Positions 16,451-64,000 of a stretch of DNA of 64,000 nt are shown here, in pieces (positions within the stretch are counted from its first letter, which is position 1; every line of letters begins with the position of its first letter). This DNA comes from Eledone cirrhosa. Its lineage: Eukaryota. Made by a program: the position numbers and the translations under genes. The notes beneath the pieces are model-generated. The model was not told the origin of the DNA and did not search any database. It was given only the letters and a program-made list of their open reading frames with translations. The DNA is taken from NCBI GenBank assembly GCA_964016885.1, contig OZ024742.1, positions 86,800,001 to 86,864,000 of the forward strand, written 5' to 3'.

Positions 16451-17106
16451 CTAGTATTCTATGATTTCGTGATGCTGATCAGATGTATATGGTGTTTTAT
16501 TTTCGATCTACATTTGTATTGTACTACTTGGATTAACAAATTAATCCTCCATATGACTACGGTGAGAATTAATTTATTAAACTGAAGAATTGTATACCCA
16601 GCTTAAGATATTTACGCAAAGCTGAGTTTCCCAACGTTTTTTTGTTGTTATTACTGATGATCTTCGTTTACGATATCCACTAAGAATTCAAATAAACTAC
16701 ATTATACATTGAATTTATGGTGACACACTAAAAATAATATTTTATGACCTTCGATGTAGAAAGTGATAAGTGTTTCTATTTGTAGTGTATTTTATGAGTT
16801 ATTCGATAACTATTTTGCTAAGAAGACTAATGATATATCTGAAGGTAGAAATATGTTTTTTCTGTTTGTTATTTTTCATTAGAAACCACAATCCTTTAGT
16901 TTCTATATATTTATATTTCAGGCAAAATGCCCGAAATATTAAAAGATGTATAGTCGATTTATTGATAACAATATATCATTATTACTCCTATGTTTCTCTC
17001 CTGAACGATGAAATGAAAATTAGACATTGCCAGTATTTATCTCTCATAATACAATATGGCTCATTCAGTAGACGCTATCACACACAAGGTTTGTAGATAA
17101 AATAAA

Positions 17107-17285
17107 TGTTTCTACTTTAGGCACAAGGCCAGCAATATCCAGTGCATTACTGGTACTTTATTTTATTGACCCCGTAAGGATGAAAGGCAAAGTCAACTTC
17201 GACGGGATTTGAACTCAGATCGTAAAGGGACGTAACTATACTGGAAAGCATGGCGTCCGACCCTCTACCGATACTGCCAATCCAC
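17107..17285 (-). mobile_element. tRNA-derived SINE, family A (Meta-domain-like core)
   Basis: A box TGGCAGTATCGG, B box GAGTTCAAATCC, and core GACTTTGCCTTTCATCCTTACGGGGTC..AAAATAAAGTACC. Multiple copies in the window. Confidence 0.88.
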
Positions 17286-21480: not shown

Positions 21481-23823
<2,343 letters not shown>

Positions 23824-26694: not shown

Positions 26695-26828
26695 CACTTT
26701 TTGGACTTTCGCAGTTATCTCCCTTACACCTCTCGCACGCAGTCTAGTATTTCCTGTGTGATGTGACCGGGTTCCTTCGCATGCGCGTTCAATCGGTTGT
26801 CCTTCCTGTTCCTATAACCATGCACATT

Positions 26829-26868
26829 CCGAGCTGAGGATCCACTAAGTTGAAACAATTGTTCTAGG
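26829..26868 (+). ncRNA. Minimal hammerhead ribozyme (Penelope pLTR type)
   Basis: CCGAG-CUGAGGA-UCCACUAAGUU-GAAA-CAAUUG-UU-CUAGG, with palindromic stem III and weak stem II. Same family as 61981-62118. Confidence 0.6.
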
Positions 26869-26967
26869 TATGGTGAACTAACTGTTATGTAACCATTTAT
26901 ATATATATATATATATGAGAGACGTAAAATAAGAAAATTATAAAATTAACTTACTTACTAAAATTTC

Positions 26968-27050
26968 ACTCCCAACTAATTAGTTTCTGAAAGGGAATAA
27001 ACATACTTTCCGAAGAAGTGTACAGAGAAGCCTTTCCTCATCAGGGAAGT
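26968..27050 (-). ncRNA. Type I hammerhead ribozyme, array 1 copy 1
   Basis: Minus strand reads ACUUCC-CUGAUGA-G-GAAAGG...C(UUCG)G hairpin...CCUUUC-A-GAAA-CUAAUUAG-UU-GGGAGU. Stem I is 6 bp with one G-U pair. Confidence 0.82.
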
Positions 27051-27488
27051 ATATTCTCAGCTAAGTTTCCAGGCAATAGGTGGACACTGGGAACTTATAC
27101 AAAAATAATTTAGTGGATAGAAAAAAGCAAAGCGTGGACTAAATTCCTAGCCATTGAGAAAATCACTGCCTACTGCGTCGGTGGCAAATTCAAAAGAACC
27201 AATCACGTGACATCGAGGTCAATCAGTGGAAAGTGGTTTGTTAAGAAGACAGCAGCCTGACTGTTACCATAGCAGCAGTCTTGGCCAATTTTGCTCGACA
27301 AATAATTTGGAGATAATTATAAAGAATTAGTATATCTAGTAACATATATATACATACAGATGCATACTTATGCTAGCAAATATATAGGTTTTGTCTTAGT
27401 AACTTTGTGGTTCAATGCATGGGGTTGCAGAACAATAATATGAGAGACGTAAAATAAGAAAATTATAAAATTAACTTACTAAAATTTC

Positions 27489-27571
27489 ACTCCCAACTAA
27501 TTAGTTTCTGAAAGGGAATAAATATACTTTCCGAAGAAGTGTACAGAGAAGCCTTTCCTCATCAGGCAAGA
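27489..27571 (-). ncRNA. Type I hammerhead ribozyme, array 1 copy 2 (stem I weakened)
   Basis: Core, stem II and stem III match copy 1, but the 5' strand of stem I is UCUUGC, giving two mismatches against GGGAGU. Confidence 0.7.
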
Positions 27572-28492
27572 CTATTCTCAGCTAAGTTTCCAGGCAATAG
27601 GTGGACACTGGGAACTTATACAAAAATAATTTAGTGGATAGAAAAAAGCAAAGCGTGGACTAAATTCCTAGCCATTGAGAAAATCACTGCCTACTGCGTC
27701 GGTGGCAAATTCAAAAGAATCAATAACGTGACATCGAGGTCAATCAGTGGAAAGTGGTTTGTTAAGAAGACAGCAGCCTGACTGTTACCATAGCAGCAGT
27801 CTTGGCCAATTTTGCTCGACAAATAATTCGGAGATAATTATAAATAATTAGTATATCTAGTAACATATATATACACACAGATGCATACTTATGCTAGCAA
27901 ATATATAGGTTTTGTCTTAGTAACTTTATATATATATATATAAATGGTTACACAACCGTTCAATGGACGAAGAAAATCTTGTGATCTCTGTGTTACGGAA
28001 GCATATTACATAACTCGATCACGACCTCTACTGATTAACGATAGAACGGAGGTAACCATTAGCTGTGAACATCGAAAAGCTAATTCCTTCGCCAATAGAA
28101 TTGTTGACCCAACTTAGTCATGTAGCCCCATTTTTACTTGTAGCTAATAAGTTAAATTGCTATGAAAAACTCGATAATTATAAGTTACCTCCCCTATAAG
28201 TTGTCTCTCAATTAAAACATTTAAAAACTAGCACTTAAATATAAACACTCACAATCCCTAATCTCTCGAGAAGTTACTTCCCCTGAAACCACCCTCTAAT
28301 TAGTAAGGTAAATACGCCATTTGGCAGCCATCTTGTTACCCATATGCAGATCTCACACAATGCAACCTGGACAGATGAATACTGCTTGATTATGGCTGAG
28401 AAATGCTGCAACCAAGACACCATAGTAAAAACCAATATATGGAATATTATATTATGTAACATTATCCCATTATTTTAATTTATATTCCTTTG

Positions 28493-35361: not shown

Positions 35362-36013
35362 ATATGTATGTTTTATGTTCATATATATATATGTATGCAT
35401 GTTGCACTAAGGGAGGATTTCACGAGATGCTTCTTCTGTATATGTATGGTTAATACGTTCACCAGTGCATATAATTATGTCTACTTCATAGATTGCAAAA
35501 TATGCTATCCACGTGTCAAGTCTGCATTAATGTAATAGATAGTAATTTAATCTATGGAATATATATCTATCTGTATATATATGTATATATATATATATAT
35601 ATATAACTGTTTCTACTTTAGGCACAAGGCAGCAATTACCCAGTACATTACTGGTACTTTATTTTATCGACCCCGTAAGGATGCAAGGCAAAGTTAACCT
35701 GGGCGGGATTTGAACTCAAAATGGCAAGGGCCGTAACTATGATAGAAAGCATGGTGTCTGACGCTCTACCGATTCTGCAAAATCTACAAGGTCGATAAAT
35801 TAGTTTTGCGAGGTTTTTCATATGAAATCGTGTGTCTATATTGTATCTGTATTATTTTTGACCGTTGGTCAGTCAATTGCAACATTGAGGACCGAATAAA
35901 TTAGATTACCGATATAAAAGACACAGAAGCGAAAAGAGAAATCCAACCAAACAGTGAGTGTGTTTTGTTATTAATTCTGGCAATATTACACAAATATGAC
36001 CCTCCCCAAGTAT

Positions 36014-42474: not shown

Positions 42475-43834
42475 CATATTATGTAATTGTAACATATTTC
42501 TAGAACAATTCGTTTAACACAGCCAAAATGCATATCCTACGAATTAACCTTAAACTATTTCCCATGTGATCTAAATTTCATTTCCCGTTTCTCTATTATT
42601 GCAACGGAAATTCGTAAACGCTTTTTTTTTCTCATCACAAATATCAAATTACATTATTACTACCAACTTCACACATAAACTTTACATTTCAGCATTTCTG
42701 TCTATTCCTTCATAGATATATATGTTTAAATAAAACATTGCAGAACATGTTTTGTTTAAATTTGAGGTTTATGATTTTCGCAGCAATCTTAACATTTCCA
42801 TTGATTCGATACTGTCTAAACAGTTGAGTAACAGATGGTTGTCCTTAAAATGTTATCATGGTTTCGACAAAAACATATAGTAGCCAAGTCTAGGAGTGTT
42901 CCTCCCAGAGCTTTCACGAATATTAAAAGAAAGAAAAACAACATTGCTTATATATTTTAATGTGAATTGCAATCACAATATCGTTTGCCATAACGTACAA
43001 TGGGTTACATTTGTACGTTTATGAACATTATCTAATGAGCAATTAATATTGCTATCACAAGTTCATTAAAATCCATAACGCTCTCTAGCTTCTCATCACC
43101 ACGAGCGGATAAATATAATGCACATATGTCAAGATATCAAACATAATATGTTCTTTTATTTAAATATCAAATAATATATGTATTGGGATATTTTTTCATG
43201 AAACTAAATATTAACGCAATCAATTGGAAATGTTCGATATAAAACTATTTGCACTGAGTAATTGAAGTAGATAGTATTTTAAGGGGTAATCTCATGCTTA
43301 AAAATACACCACATTTAAATATACATAATTATATTTGAGCGGATACTGTTAGTATTACAAAACACAAAATAAATATAAGCCAATGTTTATGATGGAAATA
43401 TCGGGGTACGTTTTATCAATTAGAAATTACATAACATCATATTCTTCGTTTCTGATACATCTACACTAACTTTAAAGCGTATCGTAAGTAACCATCACTA
43501 TATATACAGTTATAAAATGTTTCTCTATAAATAAATAGATGATTTGATTTGTAGATACATGGATATTTATAGATATGTTTATATATATATTAATAAAAGT
43601 AAACAAATATATCAAAATAAAACGAGAATTGTAAAGTAAACTCAATAGTGTTTGCAAACGCCGGAATTTGTTAAAACATGAGTAAATATTTACATTGGAA
43701 TGCTTTGAGAGTAGTATTGTATTAATAATAAATAATGAAAATCCGATGTATTTACTATTTTCATTTACTCACAAACTATATAAACATGAAGTATAATTTT
43801 ATTGTGAGCAATTCGTTCACTGTCTATCAAATAA

Positions 43835-44093
43835 TTGTTTCTACTTTAGACACAAGCCAGCAATTACCCAGTACATTACTGGAACTTTATTTTATCGAGC
43901 CCGTAAGGATGAAAGGCAAAGTTAACCTCGGCTGGATTTCAACTCAGACTGTAAAGGGACGTAACTATGCTAGAAACAATGGCGTCCAACCCTCTACCGA
44001 TACTGCCAATCCACCACCCTATCTTTCTATCAAATAATTGTTTCTACTTTTGGCACAAGGCCAGCAATTATCCCAGTGTATTACTGGTACTTT
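43835..44093 (-). mobile_element. SINE family A: full copy (43835-44017) plus a 3'-end-only copy (44037-44093)
   Basis: Homology to family A. TCTATCAAATAAT occurs three times around the two copies. Confidence 0.88.
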
Positions 44094-54442: not shown

Positions 54443-54766
54443 TTACGATCTGAGTTCAAATCCCGCCAAGGTTGACTTTGCCTTTCATCCTTACGGGGTC
54501 GATAAAATAAAGTACCAGTAATGAACTGGGTTATTGCTGGCCTTGTGCCTAAAGTAGAAACAATTATTATTATTAATATTGGTGGTGAATTGGCAGTATC
54601 GGTAGAGGGTCAGACGCCAGGCTTTCTAGCATAGTTATATCCCTTTATGATCTGAGTTCAAATCCCGCCGAGGTTAACTTTGCCTTTCATCCTTACGGGG
54701 TCAATAAAATAAAGTACCAGTACTGTACTGGGTATTTGATGGCCTTGTGACAAAAGGTAGAAACAA
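54443..54766 (+). mobile_element. SINE family A: 5'-truncated copy (54443-54563) plus full copy (54581-54766) with (TTA)n tails
   Basis: Homology to family A; A and B boxes are present in the second copy. Confidence 0.9.
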
Positions 54767-56019
54767 TTATTATTATTAATATTATCATTATTATTATTAT
54801 CATTAGTAGTAGTAACAGCAGCAGAAGCAGTAGTAGTAGTGGCAGTAGTAGTAGTAGTCGTGGTGGTGGTGGTAGTAGTAGTAGTAGTAGTTGTAGTAAC
54901 ACATTGTTTTACAAAATACTGGCAGGATTACTGGAATTTCCTCTGATCTGAGATGTACTTGAGGATACTTGGATTAACAGCTTAAACTGGGGAACTGCAT
55001 TGGCTTGAAGCTACTTGACATGCGTAAGGTTAACTGTGAAGCAAGAATCAATACATTTTTATCGTGCACTTTTTATACTATACAAGCAATTAGGATATAA
55101 ATCATTGACAAGCTAGACAGGGAGCTCAACTTTTACATGAGAACCGTGTGTTCTTGTTTAAAATTGTGAATAAAAGCATGAATATTAATAAACAAGACAT
55201 AAAATATTATTAAACCACTGAGGAATTTAACAGAGAAAAATGTATCTCATAGATTTGTCGAAAAAGATGCATGGCTGGGATTAAATGTATTTAAATTGTA
55301 TCAAATATTGAAAATACTGTATACAATATAATATCTTGCGTATCATAATTTGAATCTATAGAGTATTTTATCGTGCAAATAAACATAATTAGTGGTCCGT
55401 AAATAATTCACATCAGACAAGAGCGTAAGAACGTGCTTCCAGTCGTATTCGTTCAGGAAGTTCATTCCATACCAAGTTCAATTATAGATATTCAAAAAGA
55501 CAACTGAATGTTTTAATAGACGGAAGGATATATACAGTATAAATTGAGGCATATGCTGTAAGTTCTTTACATTCTATGTCTTTCATTATTGAATCAAAGT
55601 ACTTAATTGTTGTGCTTTCATTGCGGAATTGAATGTCAGACATAGCATTATTAACATTTCCAATCAAATCAAAATTAGATCCAACTAATATATGTATATA
55701 TATATATATATATTAATTCAGTATTTACTATGCTTCGGAATTCATATAGCTCCGTATATATTTCCCCACTTGTTGGATACATCGTCGACAAGGATCTTCA
55801 GATTAATAAGAAATAATAGAAACGGTGTTTTTTGCAACACAATATTTAAGAGAGGATGGGATAAAATATTATATAAGACACATGGTAATAATGTTCTTAA
55901 TTTTCTCGGCACAATTCCTATAATTATTAATAAATAATGTTATACAGATTTAACTCAAATTTTATAAGCTAAATTCCCTACACATCTCATTTATAGTCTT
56001 TAGAATGTTATATTTAGCA

Positions 56020-56781: not shown

Positions 56782-56823
<42 letters not shown>

Positions 56824-56890
56824 CGTAAAATAAGAAAATATCTTTTAAAAAAATTTTTAAAAAATTTTTTACTTACTTACTTAAATTTTC

Positions 56891-56972
56891 ACTCCAACTA
56901 ATTAGTTTCTGCAATGGGATAAAGACAGTTACATAATCCAACTGTCGAGAATTCATTGCGTCATCAGGGAGT
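56891..56972 (-). ncRNA. Type I hammerhead ribozyme, array 2 copy 1
   Basis: Minus strand reads ACUCC-CUGAUGA-C-GCAAUG...GACAGUU(loop)AACUGUC...CAUUGC-A-GAAA-CUAAUUAG-UU-GGAGU. Core is intact, stem I is ACUCC/GGAGU, stem III is palindromic, cleavage triplet is GUU. Confidence 0.85.
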
Positions 56973-57444
56973 CTATTCTCAGCTGAGCCTCCAGGCAATG
57001 CGCGGACACTGGCGGCTCATATAAAAATAATAATTCGGTAGAAAGAACAGCTAGGCGAGGACTGGATTCTATGTACTGAAATTCTCACTGCTTCCAGTCA
57101 AATGGCCGATTCTAAAGAATCAATCACGTGACATAGAGGCCAGTTAGAAGGAATGGGATGGTAAGATGACTGACGCCTACTAACACCCCCAAAAAAATTT
57201 TGAAGTGGTTTTGGCAGGTTTGCTCGACAAATCAGTGATTTGGAGATAAATATAGATAATTTAATATATCAACTAACTTAGGCGCACAGATGTACGTCCA
57301 TGCCAGCAAATACACAGGTTATGTCATAGTACCTAGGTGGTTCAATGCAGGAGGGTGCAGAACAATAATATAAAAGACGTAAAATAAGAAAATATCTTTT
57401 AAAAAAATTTTTTAAAAATTTTTTACTTACTTACTTAAATTTTC

Positions 57445-57526
57445 ACTCCAACTAATTAGTTTCTGCAATGGGATAAAGACAGTTACATAATCCAACTGTC
57501 GAGAATTCATTGCGTCATCAGGGAGT
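57445..57526 (-). ncRNA. Type I hammerhead ribozyme, array 2 copy 2
   Basis: Same sequence and fold as 56891-56972. Confidence 0.85.
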
Positions 57527-57997
57527 CTATTCTCAGCTGAGCCTCCAGGCAATGCGCGGACACTGGCGGCTCATATAAAAATAATAATTCGGTAGAAAGA
57601 ACAGCTAGGCGAGGACTGGATTCTATGTACTGAAATTCTCACTGCTTCCAGTCAAATGGCCGATTCTAAAGAATCAATCACGTGACATAGAGGCCAGTTA
57701 GAAGGAATGGGATGGTAAGATGACTGACGCCTACTAACACCCAAAAAAAATTTTGAAGTGGTTTTGGCAGGTTTGCTCGACAAATCAGTGATTTGGAGAT
57801 AAATATAGATAATTTAATATATCAACTAACATAGGCGCACAGATGTACGTCCATGCCAGCAAATACACAGGTTATGTCATAGTACCTAGGTGGTTCAATG
57901 CAGGAGGGTGCAGAACAATAATATAAAAGACGTAAAATAAGAAAATATCTTTTAAAAACATTTTAAAAAAATTGTTTACTTACTTACTTAAATTTTC

Positions 57998-58079
57998 ACT
58001 CCAACTAATTAGTTTCTGCAATGGGATAAAGACAGTTACATAATCTAACTGTCGAGAATTCATTGCGTCATCAGGGAGT
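57998..58079 (-). ncRNA. Type I hammerhead ribozyme, array 2 copy 3
   Basis: Same fold, with one substitution in the stem II terminal loop. Confidence 0.85.
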
Positions 58080-58551
58080 CTATTCTCAGCTGAGCCTCCA
58101 GGCAATGCGCGGACACTGGCGGCTCATATAAAAATAATAATTCGGTAGAAAGAACAGCTAGGCGAGGACTGGATTCTATGTACTGAAATTCTCACTGCTT
58201 CCAGTCAAATGGCCGATTCTAAAGAATCAATCACGTGACATAGAGGCCAGTTAGAAGGAATGGGATGGTAAGATGACTGACGCCTACTAACACCCCAAAA
58301 AAAATGTTGAAGTGGTTTTGGCAGGTTTGCTCGACAAATCAGTGATTTGGAGATAAATATAGATAATTTAATATATCAACTAACATAGGCGCACAGATGT
58401 ACGTCCATGCCAGCAAATACACAGGTTATGTCATAGTACCTAGGTGGTTCAATGCAGGAGGGTGCAGAACAATAATATAAAAGACGTAAAATAAGAAAAT
58501 ATCTTTTAAAAAAATTTTAAAAAAATTTTTTACTTACTTACTTAAATTTTC

Positions 58552-59371: not shown

Positions 59372-61880
59372 AGTAAACAATTGAACGGGAACAAAACAGA
59401 GAGGTTGTACGAACAAAGGTCTATTAGTTTCACGCTCTTGAGAGTGGGGTGGTGGTGGGGAACGATGTTTCAGGCATAAGCCCTTATTCAGGTAAAAAGT
59501 GTGTGGGACGAGAGTTCCAAGGGTGTGTGGGGGAGTGGTGGAGAGACATATAGAAAAAAGGGGGTGAGAGGAAACGTTAGAAATGAAATTAAATATAACA
59601 GCATAATAAAAATAAAAATAAACACGAAGTAAAACAGGTGGTGCAAGGGTGTGGGGCGTGTAGGGGTGGTGGCGGGTGGAGTGGGGAGAGGGAGGCGGGG
59701 TGTCTGAGCGGGGAGGGCTGAAGGTGGTGTGTGTGTGTAGATGTACGTGTGTGTATGTGAAAGTAAGAGTTGAGGGGAAGAACGGGGTTGCATGTTCAGG
59801 AAGAGGTGTGTGTGGTGTGGGGTGTAGGTCGGAATGTGTGTGCGTGTGTGGGTGGGGAGGGGTCACAGGGGTGGTGGGAGAGGATTCCGGAGTCTGAGTG
59901 TGTAAATATGTGGTGGTACGCACGTGTTTGTGTGGTGTTTATGCCTGTTGTGGATGTAGGTGGCGTTTGGGAAAAAGAAATGTTTGAGTGTATGTCAGTG
60001 GGTGAGTCCTTAAGTTAGTTCCGTAGAGGATGTGGTGGAATGCTGGGTAATATCCTTGGGATGTGGTGGATTCTAGGGATCGATGTTCAATATGTGTAAT
60101 CCGTGGTTGGTCGGAAGAGGGGAGATGTGGGGTGCGCGCGCAACAGGAAGTGGTCAGAGGGTCAAGGCAGGAGGAGGGTTGTGTGTCTGTGTGTGCGGGG
60201 AGGTGGTCAGAGATAGGGTCATAGCAGCAGTCGGGTAGAATTATAAGTGAAGAAAGTCGGTATGTCAGTGTGTGCGGAGGTGCGTTGGACAGGGGAGAGG
60301 ATGGGTAGGTGCGAAATTTGGAGTGTGGGGGGGGGTGTATTAGTAGAGGTGTTAGTGGGATGTGTGTGTGTTTGAGAAAGGGTGTGGGTGTGCGGGGAGA
60401 GAAGGGTGTGGAGACCGGTGGAGGGAGTGTAGTGTACTGGTGTGTGTGTGCATGTTTGGATGAGTGTGTGTGTGGTGAAGAGTGTGTTAGAGGGTGTTAG
60501 TATACTGTAGGTGGGGAAAGGGTTGAATGCGGGTGTGAGTGGGGGTCAGTGGTGGTAGGTGTGTAGAGTGGGTGGGGTAAGAGGGTCTGTGTTTTCGTGT
60601 GCGTAGGGTTGGGGGGGTGTTAGTTATGTTAGTTGCGTGTGGAGTGGGTGGTGTAAGTGGGTGTGTGTGTTCGTGTGCGTGGGGTCGGGGGGTGTTACTG
60701 ATGTTAGTTGCGGGGTGGTGGGATGGATGTGTGGGGGTGAGGGTTAGTGGTGGTAGTAGGGTGTGTGTTTAGTGTGAGCGCGTGTATATATGTACCGGTG
60801 GGTGTGAGCGTGTGATAAGGGGAGCGGGGGAGAAGAAGGGAGGGATGTTATTATGTTAGTTGCGGAAGGGTGGTCGGGTGTGGGATGGAAATGTTAGTAT
60901 TGTTAGTTGTGGGATGGGCGGTGAAAAGGAGGGGTGTGTTAGTGGTGTTAGTGGGGGATATGTGTCGTGGGAGGGGGACGGTTGAAGGCTAAAGGAATAA
61001 GGGTGGGGAGTTCAGGCCGGCGGGAGTGTGGGTCTGTAGGGTGAAGATGGTTCGTTGTTCGACCCTGAGGAGAGCGGCTGGTGTTCCGTGGCATTGGAGT
61101 AGGCCACAGACTGTGAGGTGGTGTGCGGAATGTCCAGGGGCGCCAAAATGGCGGGCGATGGGGGAACTACCACCGAGACGAATATCTCGGAGGTGTTCAG
61201 TAAACCGGTCCGTGTTCAGTAAACCGTGTTTAGCGAAGTCCGTAGAATAGGTTGGAGGAGGTGCAGCGGAAGGCATGCCGGACAAAGTGAGAGTGGCCGT
61301 TGGGACCCTGGAAGGTGGTGGTGTTGGTGATGCGGGGACAGGTGTTGCAGCGAGGCCTGGAACAGGGAAGGGAACCGGGGGGCGTGGGGGGAGGGAGCTG
61401 TGGACGAGAAGGGTGCGGAGATTGCGTGCGCATTTGAAGGAGGGGAGTGGTGGGGCTGGAAAGATGTGGGAGGTGGAGGGGTCGGACTGGAGGCGTCGGA
61501 AGAGGCGGAGGATGGTGCGGTGGAGGGGTATGATGGAGGGGTGCTAGGTGATGGGGAATGGGAGACGGTGGGTGGGTGTGCGGTGGCGCGGGGTGAGGGT
61601 GGTGGAGGGGTGGAGAGCACGGGCCCGGGTGAGAGCAGTGTGGACGAGAGAGAGGGGGGGGCCTCTGCAGATGAAATGGCTGATTGGGAAAGGGCCTGGG
61701 ACTCAAAGTCAGCATCTCGGCTACAGAGGTGGGGGATCCTGAGGAGTTGGGAGTAGGGAATAGAGTGTTTAGTGTGTGTCGGGTGGGAAGAGGTGAAGTC
61801 GAGGTAGGAGTGGGAAGAGGTGGGTTTGAAGAAGGCGGAGGTGACGAGAGAGTGGTGGGAGGGGTCGAAGGCGACGGAGA
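59372..61880 (-). mobile_element. 5'-truncated Penelope-like element (RT C-terminus, GIY-YIG endonuclease, long CA-rich 3' region)
   Basis: FFKPTSSHSYLDFTSSHPTHTKHSIPYSQLLR, CSRPRCNTCP, FRCTSSNLFY and DRFTEHLRDIR..SPIARHF..EQRTIFTLQTHTPAGLN (60989-61880, frameshifted, YIG motif deleted). A hammerhead-like CUGAAUA-AGGGC UUAU GCCU-GAAA lies at 59457-59497. Confidence 0.88.
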
Positions 61881-61980
61881 TGTATATATATATATATATA
61901 TATAAATAGTGGTAGAACACTGGAAGGTAATATCCGTAGTGGTAGAGCACTCAGTCCGTGGGACAAGTTAGGTAGAAGTG

Positions 61981-62118
61981 GTTACACAACAGTTAGTTCA
62001 CCATACCGAGAAATATTGTTTCACATTAACTGATCCTCAGCACGTAATGCATTACAAGCTGATGATCCGCAAAGGTAATACAATTGTTCTCGGTGTGGTG
62101 AACTAACTGTTGTGTAAC
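61981..62118. repeat. Fold-back element with two back-to-back minimal hammerhead motifs
   Basis: Inverted arms GTTACACAACAGTTAGTTCACCA / TGGTGAACTAACTGTTGTGTAAC. Minus strand has CUGAGGA..GAAA at 62006-62045; plus strand has CUGAUGA..CAAUUG-UU-CUCGG at 62054-62093 with GAAA mutated. Central palindrome is GTAATGCATTAC. Confidence 0.7.
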
Positions 62119-62322
62119 TAATTCTCTCGCTCTATATATATATATAGATGTGAGAAAAACCTCCAACTCAACTCTACTTTTGAAAAGCAGAAGAATTGCG
62201 AAACCGGTAAAGAAACCAAATAAATATATATATATATTTTAAAATAAGACTCCAGTTGCATTTTCGATTTCATCTTTTTGTCTTTATACGTTCACTCAGT
62301 TAGGACACCTCGGTTACTTTCT

Positions 62323-63644: not shown

Positions 63645-63760
63645 AGCGGATTTACCCGACGTTGCCCGGGGTTTGAAATTATGCTAAGAATATACAGCTA
63701 GGAAGTAAAAGAAGAAAATTATTTGTCCCCAACCTGTCAAATTAAGCAGAAATCTTCAAT
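63643..63760 (-). mobile_element. Helitron-like 3' end fragment
   Basis: Minus strand has a CCCGGGC-AAC-GTCGGG hairpin followed by CTTG|T, similar to 36222-36250. Confidence 0.5.
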
Positions 63761-63766
63761 AAATAA

Positions 63767-63978
63767 TTGTCTCTACTTTTGGCACAAGACCAGCAATTAC
63801 CCAGTGCATTACTGGTACTTTAAATAATAGTTTCTACTTTAGGCACAAGCCCAGCAATTAGCTAGTGCATTACTGGTACTTTATTTTATCGACCCCGTAA
63901 AGATGAAAGGCAAAGTCAACCTGCGTGGGATTTGAACTCAGATCGTAAAGGGACGTAGCTATGCTGGAAAGCATGGCG
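63767..63978 (-). mobile_element. SINE family A: 3'-end-only copy plus 5'-truncated copy
   Basis: Homology to family A. Confidence 0.85.
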
Positions 63979-64000
63979 ACTATGTTGATAATGAAGGAAA

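Follow-up and report, generated by a model that had tools for sequence, protein, structure and literature searches.

A type I hammerhead motif recurs in a 64-kb stretch of genomic DNA (the window, that is, the whole stretch that was analysed), where it is carried by a non-coding repeat that is present in more than 10,000 copies in the 3.0-Gb genome. On the reading that we consider probable, this hammerhead combines a covarying stem II with a likely pseudoknot and is predicted to cleave itself as a dimer, and the repeat is likely copied into (TA)n tracts by a Penelope-like reverse transcriptase (RT).

The repeat unit and its hammerhead

Scanning the window for the hammerhead core returned five full copies, all on the minus strand, with the core at 27044 and 27565 in array 1 and at 56967, 57521 and 58074 in array 2. 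The arrays and copies are:

26913..27927, minus strand: array 1, a 5'-truncated unit, a full 521-nt monomer (27494-26974) and a 3' piece
26953..27069, minus strand: array 1 hammerhead copy 1, with predicted distal stem I and pseudoknot strand; 122.8 bits with model R1, whose training set contains this same copy
27474..27590, minus strand: array 1 hammerhead copy 2, with a G.G mismatch that breaks stem I
56814..58551, minus strand: array 2, in which a unit of 553-554 nt is repeated in tandem about 3.1 times, ending at site A in (TA)n
56875..56991, minus strand: array 2 hammerhead, with C.A and the stem II base GCAAUG/CAUUGC
57429..57545, minus strand: array 2 hammerhead
57982..58098, minus strand: array 2 hammerhead

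The 3' piece of array 1 likewise stops at end site A, where it is joined to (TA)n. Because the arrays are about 70% identical across the 521-554-nt unit, they are subfamilies of one element and not the two separate families of the first-pass annotation. The unit measures 510-570 bp and occurs in tandem or inverted, with a same-strand spacing of 510-559 bp in 101 of 117 cases. It is non-coding (the longest ATG-initiated open reading frame spans 27-34 amino acids in three window monomers) and has a GC content of 0.36-0.38. Tandem units with one hammerhead each, lack of coding capacity and a GC content below 50%, which are among the traits of non-LTR retrozymes, are present.

Array 1 is embedded in (TA)n between pLTR-like pieces (window positions 26825-26922 and ~27940-27965) that resemble the ends of a fragment at 60989-62155, and beside it, at 26834 on the plus strand, is a minimal hammerhead-like motif whose stem III is palindromic. 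By its motifs, we take the frameshifted fragment at 60989-62155 to be derived from a Penelope-like element (PLE); its pLTR-like ends are inverted, and it contains minimal hammerhead-like motifs at 62040 (minus strand) and 62059 (plus strand), and Pfam returned no family for the two PLE-like frames in the window. A non-LTR retrotransposon remnant occupies 21777-23590 on the minus strand (RVT_1, E 7e-15, and zf-RVT), and a dispersed SINE-like repeat, some 160 bp long and containing a 61-bp subunit, is found with 85-92% identity at 17100-17255, 35600-35754, 43829-43984, 54443-54771 and 63760-63980. At locus L205 (1-588, plus strand), an open reading frame with repeated Met/Tyr/Asp-rich motifs may be reflectin-like, a resemblance that would suggest a cephalopod as host.

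The first hammerhead copy of array 1 is built as follows:

27054..27058, minus strand: GAGAA, pseudoknot 5' strand, in the stem I internal loop upstream of the core
27045..27050, minus strand: stem I 5' strand, partner 26973-26968
27038..27044, minus strand: core C3-A9, CUGAUGA
27037, minus strand: nucleotide after A9; the G found here is a rare mutation, about 95% of U7 copies having C and one subfamily A
27031..27036, minus strand: GAAAGG, stem II 5' strand
27025..27029, minus strand: UUCUC, pseudoknot 3' strand, inside the stem II internal loop
27002..27024, minus strand: distal stem II hairpin with a cUUCGg cap (27015-27010), varying between subfamilies, the basal 4 bp covarying
26989..26994, minus strand: CCUUUC, stem II 3' strand
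26988, minus strand: the A that precedes G12 (A11.1 or an additional A), replaced by another base in only 43 genome matches
26975..26987, minus strand: GAAA of the core and palindromic stem III, ACUAAUUAGU
26974, minus strand: U17, with cleavage predicted 3' of it (GUU triplet) from the hammerhead consensus

The core CUGANGA/GAAA/UH is arranged around stems I-III, the ends of the motif lying in stem I as in type I, with U at position 17 (GUU) in 308 of 315 parsed copies. The first-pass annotation had read the stem II base correctly, as GAAAGG/CCUUUC in both copies of array 1 (27036-27031/26994-26989, minus strand) and as GCAAUG/CAUUGC in the three copies of array 2. It was also right about the distal caps, which are C(UUCG)G at 27015-27010 on a weak, interrupted stem and GACAGUU/AACUGUC in array 2, and about the identity of the core CUGAUGA/GAAA and of stem III ACUAAUUAGU across the window copies. 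Its interval ended at 27050, leaving out the pseudoknot strand at 27058-27054, and it overlooked the pseudoknot, the fact that stem III is a palindrome and an insertion structure of the Penelope type.

The exact pattern CUGAUGA...GAAACUAAUUAGU has 9,187 matches in the genome (reversed-pattern control, 0), and the version in which N7 is not U adds 1,714 (control, 0), a few of which re-match the same site; the ratios of such counts are approximate, as gap ranges differ slightly among the search patterns. The base after A9 is other than C in 455 matches, mostly the A subfamily and U, while a base other than A precedes GAAA in 43. G after A9 followed by a second G occurs in only 29 matches genome-wide, two of which are window array 1. 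C.A was found in 70 of 70 copies from the loci of the first search (30 taken in order and 19 picked for diversity), and one locus (L099) holds a copy with the core of array 1 and C after A9. Since G.A is confined to those 29 matches, which are scattered over all subfamilies, and C.A is universal in the sample, G.A is a local mutation common to both array 1 copies; C.A is the norm and A.A marks a subfamily. The claim that both arrays have A at 11.1 stands as far as an A precedes GAAA in five of five window copies, and G.A as a family trait is ruled out. At four loci (L034, L091, L125 and L141), the distal hairpin is much shortened with the stem II base and the pseudoknot strand intact, and these copies represent natural truncation variants.

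The suspicion that standard models miss this variant was borne out. An Rfam search of the window gave no hammerhead family match at gathering score, and none appeared at E<=10 either when the surroundings of array 1 and five loci were searched.

Covariation, the likely pseudoknot and the core-side loop

Selection on the RNA fold, already proposed from the two window arrays, is supported by a tree-aware covariation test, by covariation scores and by RNAalifold. The tree-aware test, used in place of R-scape, included those 154 of the 315 parsed copies that have at least 260 nt of upstream unit and an intact CUGANGA; the tree was built from the flank alone, and its sample is enriched for rare variants by the search design. 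The six stem II changes on internal branches, each comprising at least three copies from three loci, consist of five double compensatory changes, one change of A-U to G.U and no break, so that the covariation holds in this larger alignment. On tip branches, breaks predominate, which is to be expected of copies once they have inserted. For random flank columns, the probability of co-change is 0.0225, and at this background the chance of five in six is ~3e-8, a rough value calculated by hand that ignores tree error and recombination. In 40 hand-picked copies, the covariation score of the named structure is 0.296, compared with 0.122+-0.009 for shuffled controls (0/500) and at most 0.088 for slid controls; stem I was omitted from this scoring because the alignment shifts its register. 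In the same 40 copies, one stem II position shows all four Watson-Crick pairs, the distal hairpin has double changes in all four basal pairs, and RNAalifold recovers the same ten pairs. The invariance of A11.1 was rejected as proof of selection, because 135 of 280 flank columns equally never change on internal branches.

The strand GAGAA (27058-27054), upstream of stem I, is complementary to UUCUC (27029-27025) in the stem II internal loop. Within the family of the window (family A), each of the five pairs is formed in 143-151 of the 154 copies; an 11-copy clade switched G-C to A-U, a 4-copy clade broke the pairing, and the family A pseudoknot rests on one compensatory event. The same layout is found in family B, which is unrelated to family A in sequence (stem III ACCAUGGU; 2,740 matches, control 6). 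Here, pseudoknot pairs 1-4 are kept in 64-68 of 69 copies and pair 5 in 47 of 69, and pair 4 is C-G in 43, U-A in 19 and U.G in 4 of the 69. The family B loci examined (L160-L189, L250-L283) have a GUA triplet and few same-strand pairs, which lie ~640-700 bp apart. Two small groups, C and D, have related pseudoknot strands:

Loci L123, L126, L127, L284-L288 and L290-L306: group C, old and diverged, keeping H-G...C-A, same layout
Loci L258, L261, L278, L279 and L282: group D, old and diverged, same layout, pseudoknot complementarity of up to 9 bp

The family A model finds 11 of 13 group C/D loci at E<=0.031. The mean longest pseudoknot helix measures 4.6-5.8 bp within families, 3.1-4.2 bp in shuffles and 2.5-4.7 bp across families, except for D with C, where a motif common to both gives 6.3 bp. 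The extended stem II and the strand upstream of stem I are likely joined in a pseudoknot, so that the tertiary contact linking stem I to stem II is predicted as a covarying pseudoknot, which is also the likely reason for the stem II extension.

Next to the core, a 1x1 C.A/A.A loop sits between A9.G12 and the next pair, and G10.1-C11.1 is not directly between A9 and G12. The non-canonical 10.1-11.1 pair of the first-pass annotation is a possible description of this loop, but only one of two registers. Slightly favoured is a bulged H9a followed by a canonical G10.1-C11.1 and one extra A. The PLE consensus given in PMC4209133 and its supplement reads CUGANGAH-G...C-GAAA, and the first G-C after the 1x1 loop is kept in 152 of 154 copies; on this match, the motif may be the Penelope H9a and G10.1-C11.1 plus an extra A. 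In group C, 20 of 21 matches have G as the second base. The other register, to which we assign somewhat less than an even chance, is a stacked non-canonical N10.1.A11.1 pair (C.A wobble or A.A) at the base of a 7-bp stem II. It accords with two bases facing each other as a 1x1 loop, with the true 10.1.11.1 position of family B (G-C 23, A.C 17, A-U 15, A.A 7, U.U 3 and four singletons; n=69), with U-A in 3 of 21 group C matches, and with the natural U.U known in other hammerheads. Against it speaks the 5' base, for which whole clades have either C or A while G turns up only sporadically, in keeping with the 'H' rule of PLEs, and so does the fixed adjacent G-C; moreover, U may reflect CpG decay, and AGAAA occurs in 1 of 56 PLE hammerhead rows in PMC4209133, which by row order, as inferred from the order of the PDF text, belongs to a Cotesia bracovirus PLE. 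G10.1-C11.1 is only quasi-conserved, with natural exceptions known, and both 10.1-11.1 mismatches and a helix II with internal loops have precedents (including PMC1636495, Table 1). Sequence by itself cannot decide between the bulged H9a and the stacked pair.

Families A-D, with more than 13,000 exact-core copies, may constitute an undescribed clade of animal hammerheads, in which an internal-loop pseudoknot between stems I and II would give efficient cleavage despite the lost canonical 10.1-11.1 junction or the extra A; the clade would be retrozyme-borne, and its two-site ends would record Penelope-like RT priming. We put forward this wider reading tentatively. If it is true, current models miss a whole clade, and similar families may hide in other genomes.

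In sCYDV-RPV, an alternative tertiary structure reportedly attenuates cleavage, a double hammerhead is said to be needed for cleavage, and loop 1 reportedly pairs with an internal loop, in likeness to family A. By analogy, the pseudoknot may act as a brake that keeps monomers and circles uncleaved and restricts cleavage to the double hammerhead. In the sCYDV-RPV plus strand, internal loops interrupt a long helix II (PMC1636495), and stem III is here also a dimerising palindrome, but the topology, in which the stem I side pairs with the strand continuing 10.x, is the one that PMC3088659 describes for activating pseudoknots in type II hammerheads, and a brake appears unlikely. Disruption of those type II pseudoknots cut cleavage rates by orders of magnitude (PMC3088659).

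Predicted cleavage and insertion

As a hairpin, stem III has an energy of +1.5 kcal/mol, compared with -9.0 kcal/mol for the palindrome duplex, and the palindrome suggests that cleavage would occur in dimers; the double-hammerhead arrangement is known for animal type I motifs. Hammerhead and minimum-energy folds of three window copies have energies of -19.0/-25.9, -14.3/-25.7 and -22.0/-24.5 kcal/mol, which places the hammerhead fold 2.5-11 kcal/mol above the minimum in calculations that contain neither pseudoknot nor dimer terms. The 114-nt folds do not differ significantly from shuffles (z -1.0 to -1.4). Slow cleavage is predicted by the GUU triplet, by the weakness of stem III and by the mismatch. 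For Xenopus retrozyme dimers, 8 of 9 predicted were without in vitro cleavage in the account of bioRxiv 2026.07.22.740005.

In the mechanism that we propose, tandem arrays would be transcribed, and neighbouring copies would exchange the 10-nt palindrome to form a stable stem III. The GAGAA/UUCUC helix would substitute for the loop 1-loop 2 contact and dock stems I and II, with the distal hairpin serving mainly for strand return, and this docking would let the core tolerate the 1x1 C.A/A.A loop beside A9.G12. Cleavage after GUU would release monomers, which may circularise, and a PLE RT/endonuclease would prime from (TA)n at two internal RNA sites ~120 nt apart, giving rise to tandem-plus-inverted insertions.

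Alternatively, the fold may be a signal by which a PLE protein recognises its template or assists cleavage; the RNA would then have hardly any ribozyme activity of its own, or none, and the core-side mismatch would be a sign of relaxed catalysis. The anole PLE hammerhead is described as protein-assisted and as dispensable for insertion in vitro (PMC11167929), poor cleavage is reported for PLE hammerheads (PMC4209133), and 10.1.11.1 is relaxed in family B. Nonetheless, tandem units of constant length fit cleavage to monomers, as does a core kept across subfamilies that have diverged by ~30%, whose conservation is no independent test, since the search patterns required the core; we regard the protein signal as improbable. 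That the repeat is a neutrally evolving satellite or SINE that resembles a hammerhead by chance, in line with the weak folding of array 1 monomers against shuffles (z -1.1, 4/40, compared with z -3.9, 0/40 for array 2), is very improbable and is largely refuted by the covariation in family A, with its repeated double compensatory changes in stem II, by the pseudoknot tally of family B and by the architecture shared by families B, C and D, which are unrelated in sequence.

No sequencing run recorded as RNA was matched with the element sequence, contigs of two runs of unrecorded type from one sample were uninformative about ends or circles, and one metagenome scan with the exact family A pattern returned 0 matches.

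Terminal 3' ends of the element fall at two fixed sites, A ~80 nt and B ~200 nt past the predicted cut. Among A ends, 86 of 95 continue into (TA)n or (CT)n, and among B ends 66 of 81 do so (152 of 176 overall). Of 47 inverted insertions, 44 combine an A end with a B end, the sites lying ~120 nt apart. Both window arrays end at site A and are without an inverted partner. A tandem-plus-inverted structure with a one-sided tail is a hallmark of PLEs (PMC8557442), and the tail has been explained by two internal RT start sites (PMC11167929). The pairing of A and B ends and the (TA)n junctions match this signature, which makes it likely that Penelope-like enzymes spread the element; the PLE of this genome is a candidate partner only.

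This PLE is young and abundant (23,549 candidates, 135 scored, open frames of up to 1,257 amino acids), and it has two 3' ends that run into (TA)n. With its C-terminal GIY-YIG and linker cysteine motif (L220-L249; L206:462-1328, minus strand), it is presumably Neptune-like. In the one PLE family examined, 27 of 29 loci carry a minimal hammerhead of the element's own and none a family A hammerhead, and the idea that the repeat unit is the pLTR of this PLE was rejected on that ground. PLE-like pieces are present in 29 of 219 hammerhead loci, in varied positions and from varied families, and the inspected junctions between hammerhead repeat and PLE are mostly separated by (TA)n; an arrangement in which the repeat flanks an RT-GIY-YIG open reading frame as the pLTR of an autonomous PLE was not found. 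In a single case (L206, ~1300-1340), site B joins a 5'-truncated PLE open reading frame directly, without (TA)n, possibly through an RT template switch.

Significance and relation to known systems

With thousands of copies in many subfamilies, the element provides a natural mutational series at the most conserved helix junction and at the pseudoknot contact, which makes directly testable what the G10.1-C11.1 pair requires and if its loss can be made good by a docking helix. It also illustrates that Rfam-type searches can overlook families of 10^4 copies, and its A and B ends provide genomic evidence for the proposed, little-tested link between retrozymes and Penelope elements in animals. The literature searched, including that on cephalopods, contained no description of family A; the Lunse 2017 catalogue of PLE-linked variants may bear on its novelty.

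Judged by sequence-level traits, the closest class is that of the metazoan non-LTR retrozymes. As described for coral, mussel and axolotl (PMC7229834; bioRxiv 2026.07.22.740005), these are likewise non-coding, low-GC tandems that carry a single type I hammerhead in each unit, occur in thousands of copies and have a stem III that is short and palindromic; in the axolotl Amex2 retrozyme, a U.U at the foot of stem II resembles the core-side mismatch, and mussel hammerheads without standard loop contacts resemble family A. In contrast, the units given there are 150-450 bp (PMC7229834) or 51-972 (bioRxiv 2026.07.22.740005) compared with 510-570 bp here, where stem II consists of 6 bp, an internal loop and a distal hairpin with a covarying pseudoknot, C.A or A.A lies beside the core, and inverted insertions have two fixed ends.

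The minimal hammerheads of PLEs (PMC4209133) share CUGANGAH-G...C, a longer helix II, a palindromic helix III and a GUH triplet, whereas the unit described here is without an open reading frame and has a full stem I with an internal loop and a tertiary helix, features absent from the minimal PLE hammerheads. In pseudoknotted hammerheads (~40% of the representatives in PMC3088659, the type II consensus and human C10orf118), the periphery of stem I forms the same kind of Watson-Crick helix with the strand continuing 10.x, but here the motif is type I, each partner is a strand of an internal loop, and stem II is closed by a hairpin. A pistol-like PK hammerhead, in which a pseudoknot replaces helix II in the description of PMC11300833, is ruled out by the intact helix II, and the non-circular permutation described in PMC10085705 is likewise ruled out as the identity of the motif. 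The plus-strand hammerhead of sCYDV-RPV (satRPV) also has a long helix II interrupted by internal loops (PMC1636495); it differs in being a type III motif of a plant satellite RNA with a long helix III, and its contact is reported as attenuating (cf. PMC6155905). PLE insertions, as characterised in PMC8557442 and PMC11167929, show the same partial tandems, 5' inverted copy, one-end tail from two RT start sites and AT-rich or (TA)n targets, with a tail of 30-40 nt compared with ~120 nt here, where the element is non-autonomous. Every single ingredient thus has a precedent, and the element extends a known class, that of the animal retrozyme hammerheads, rather than founding a new one.
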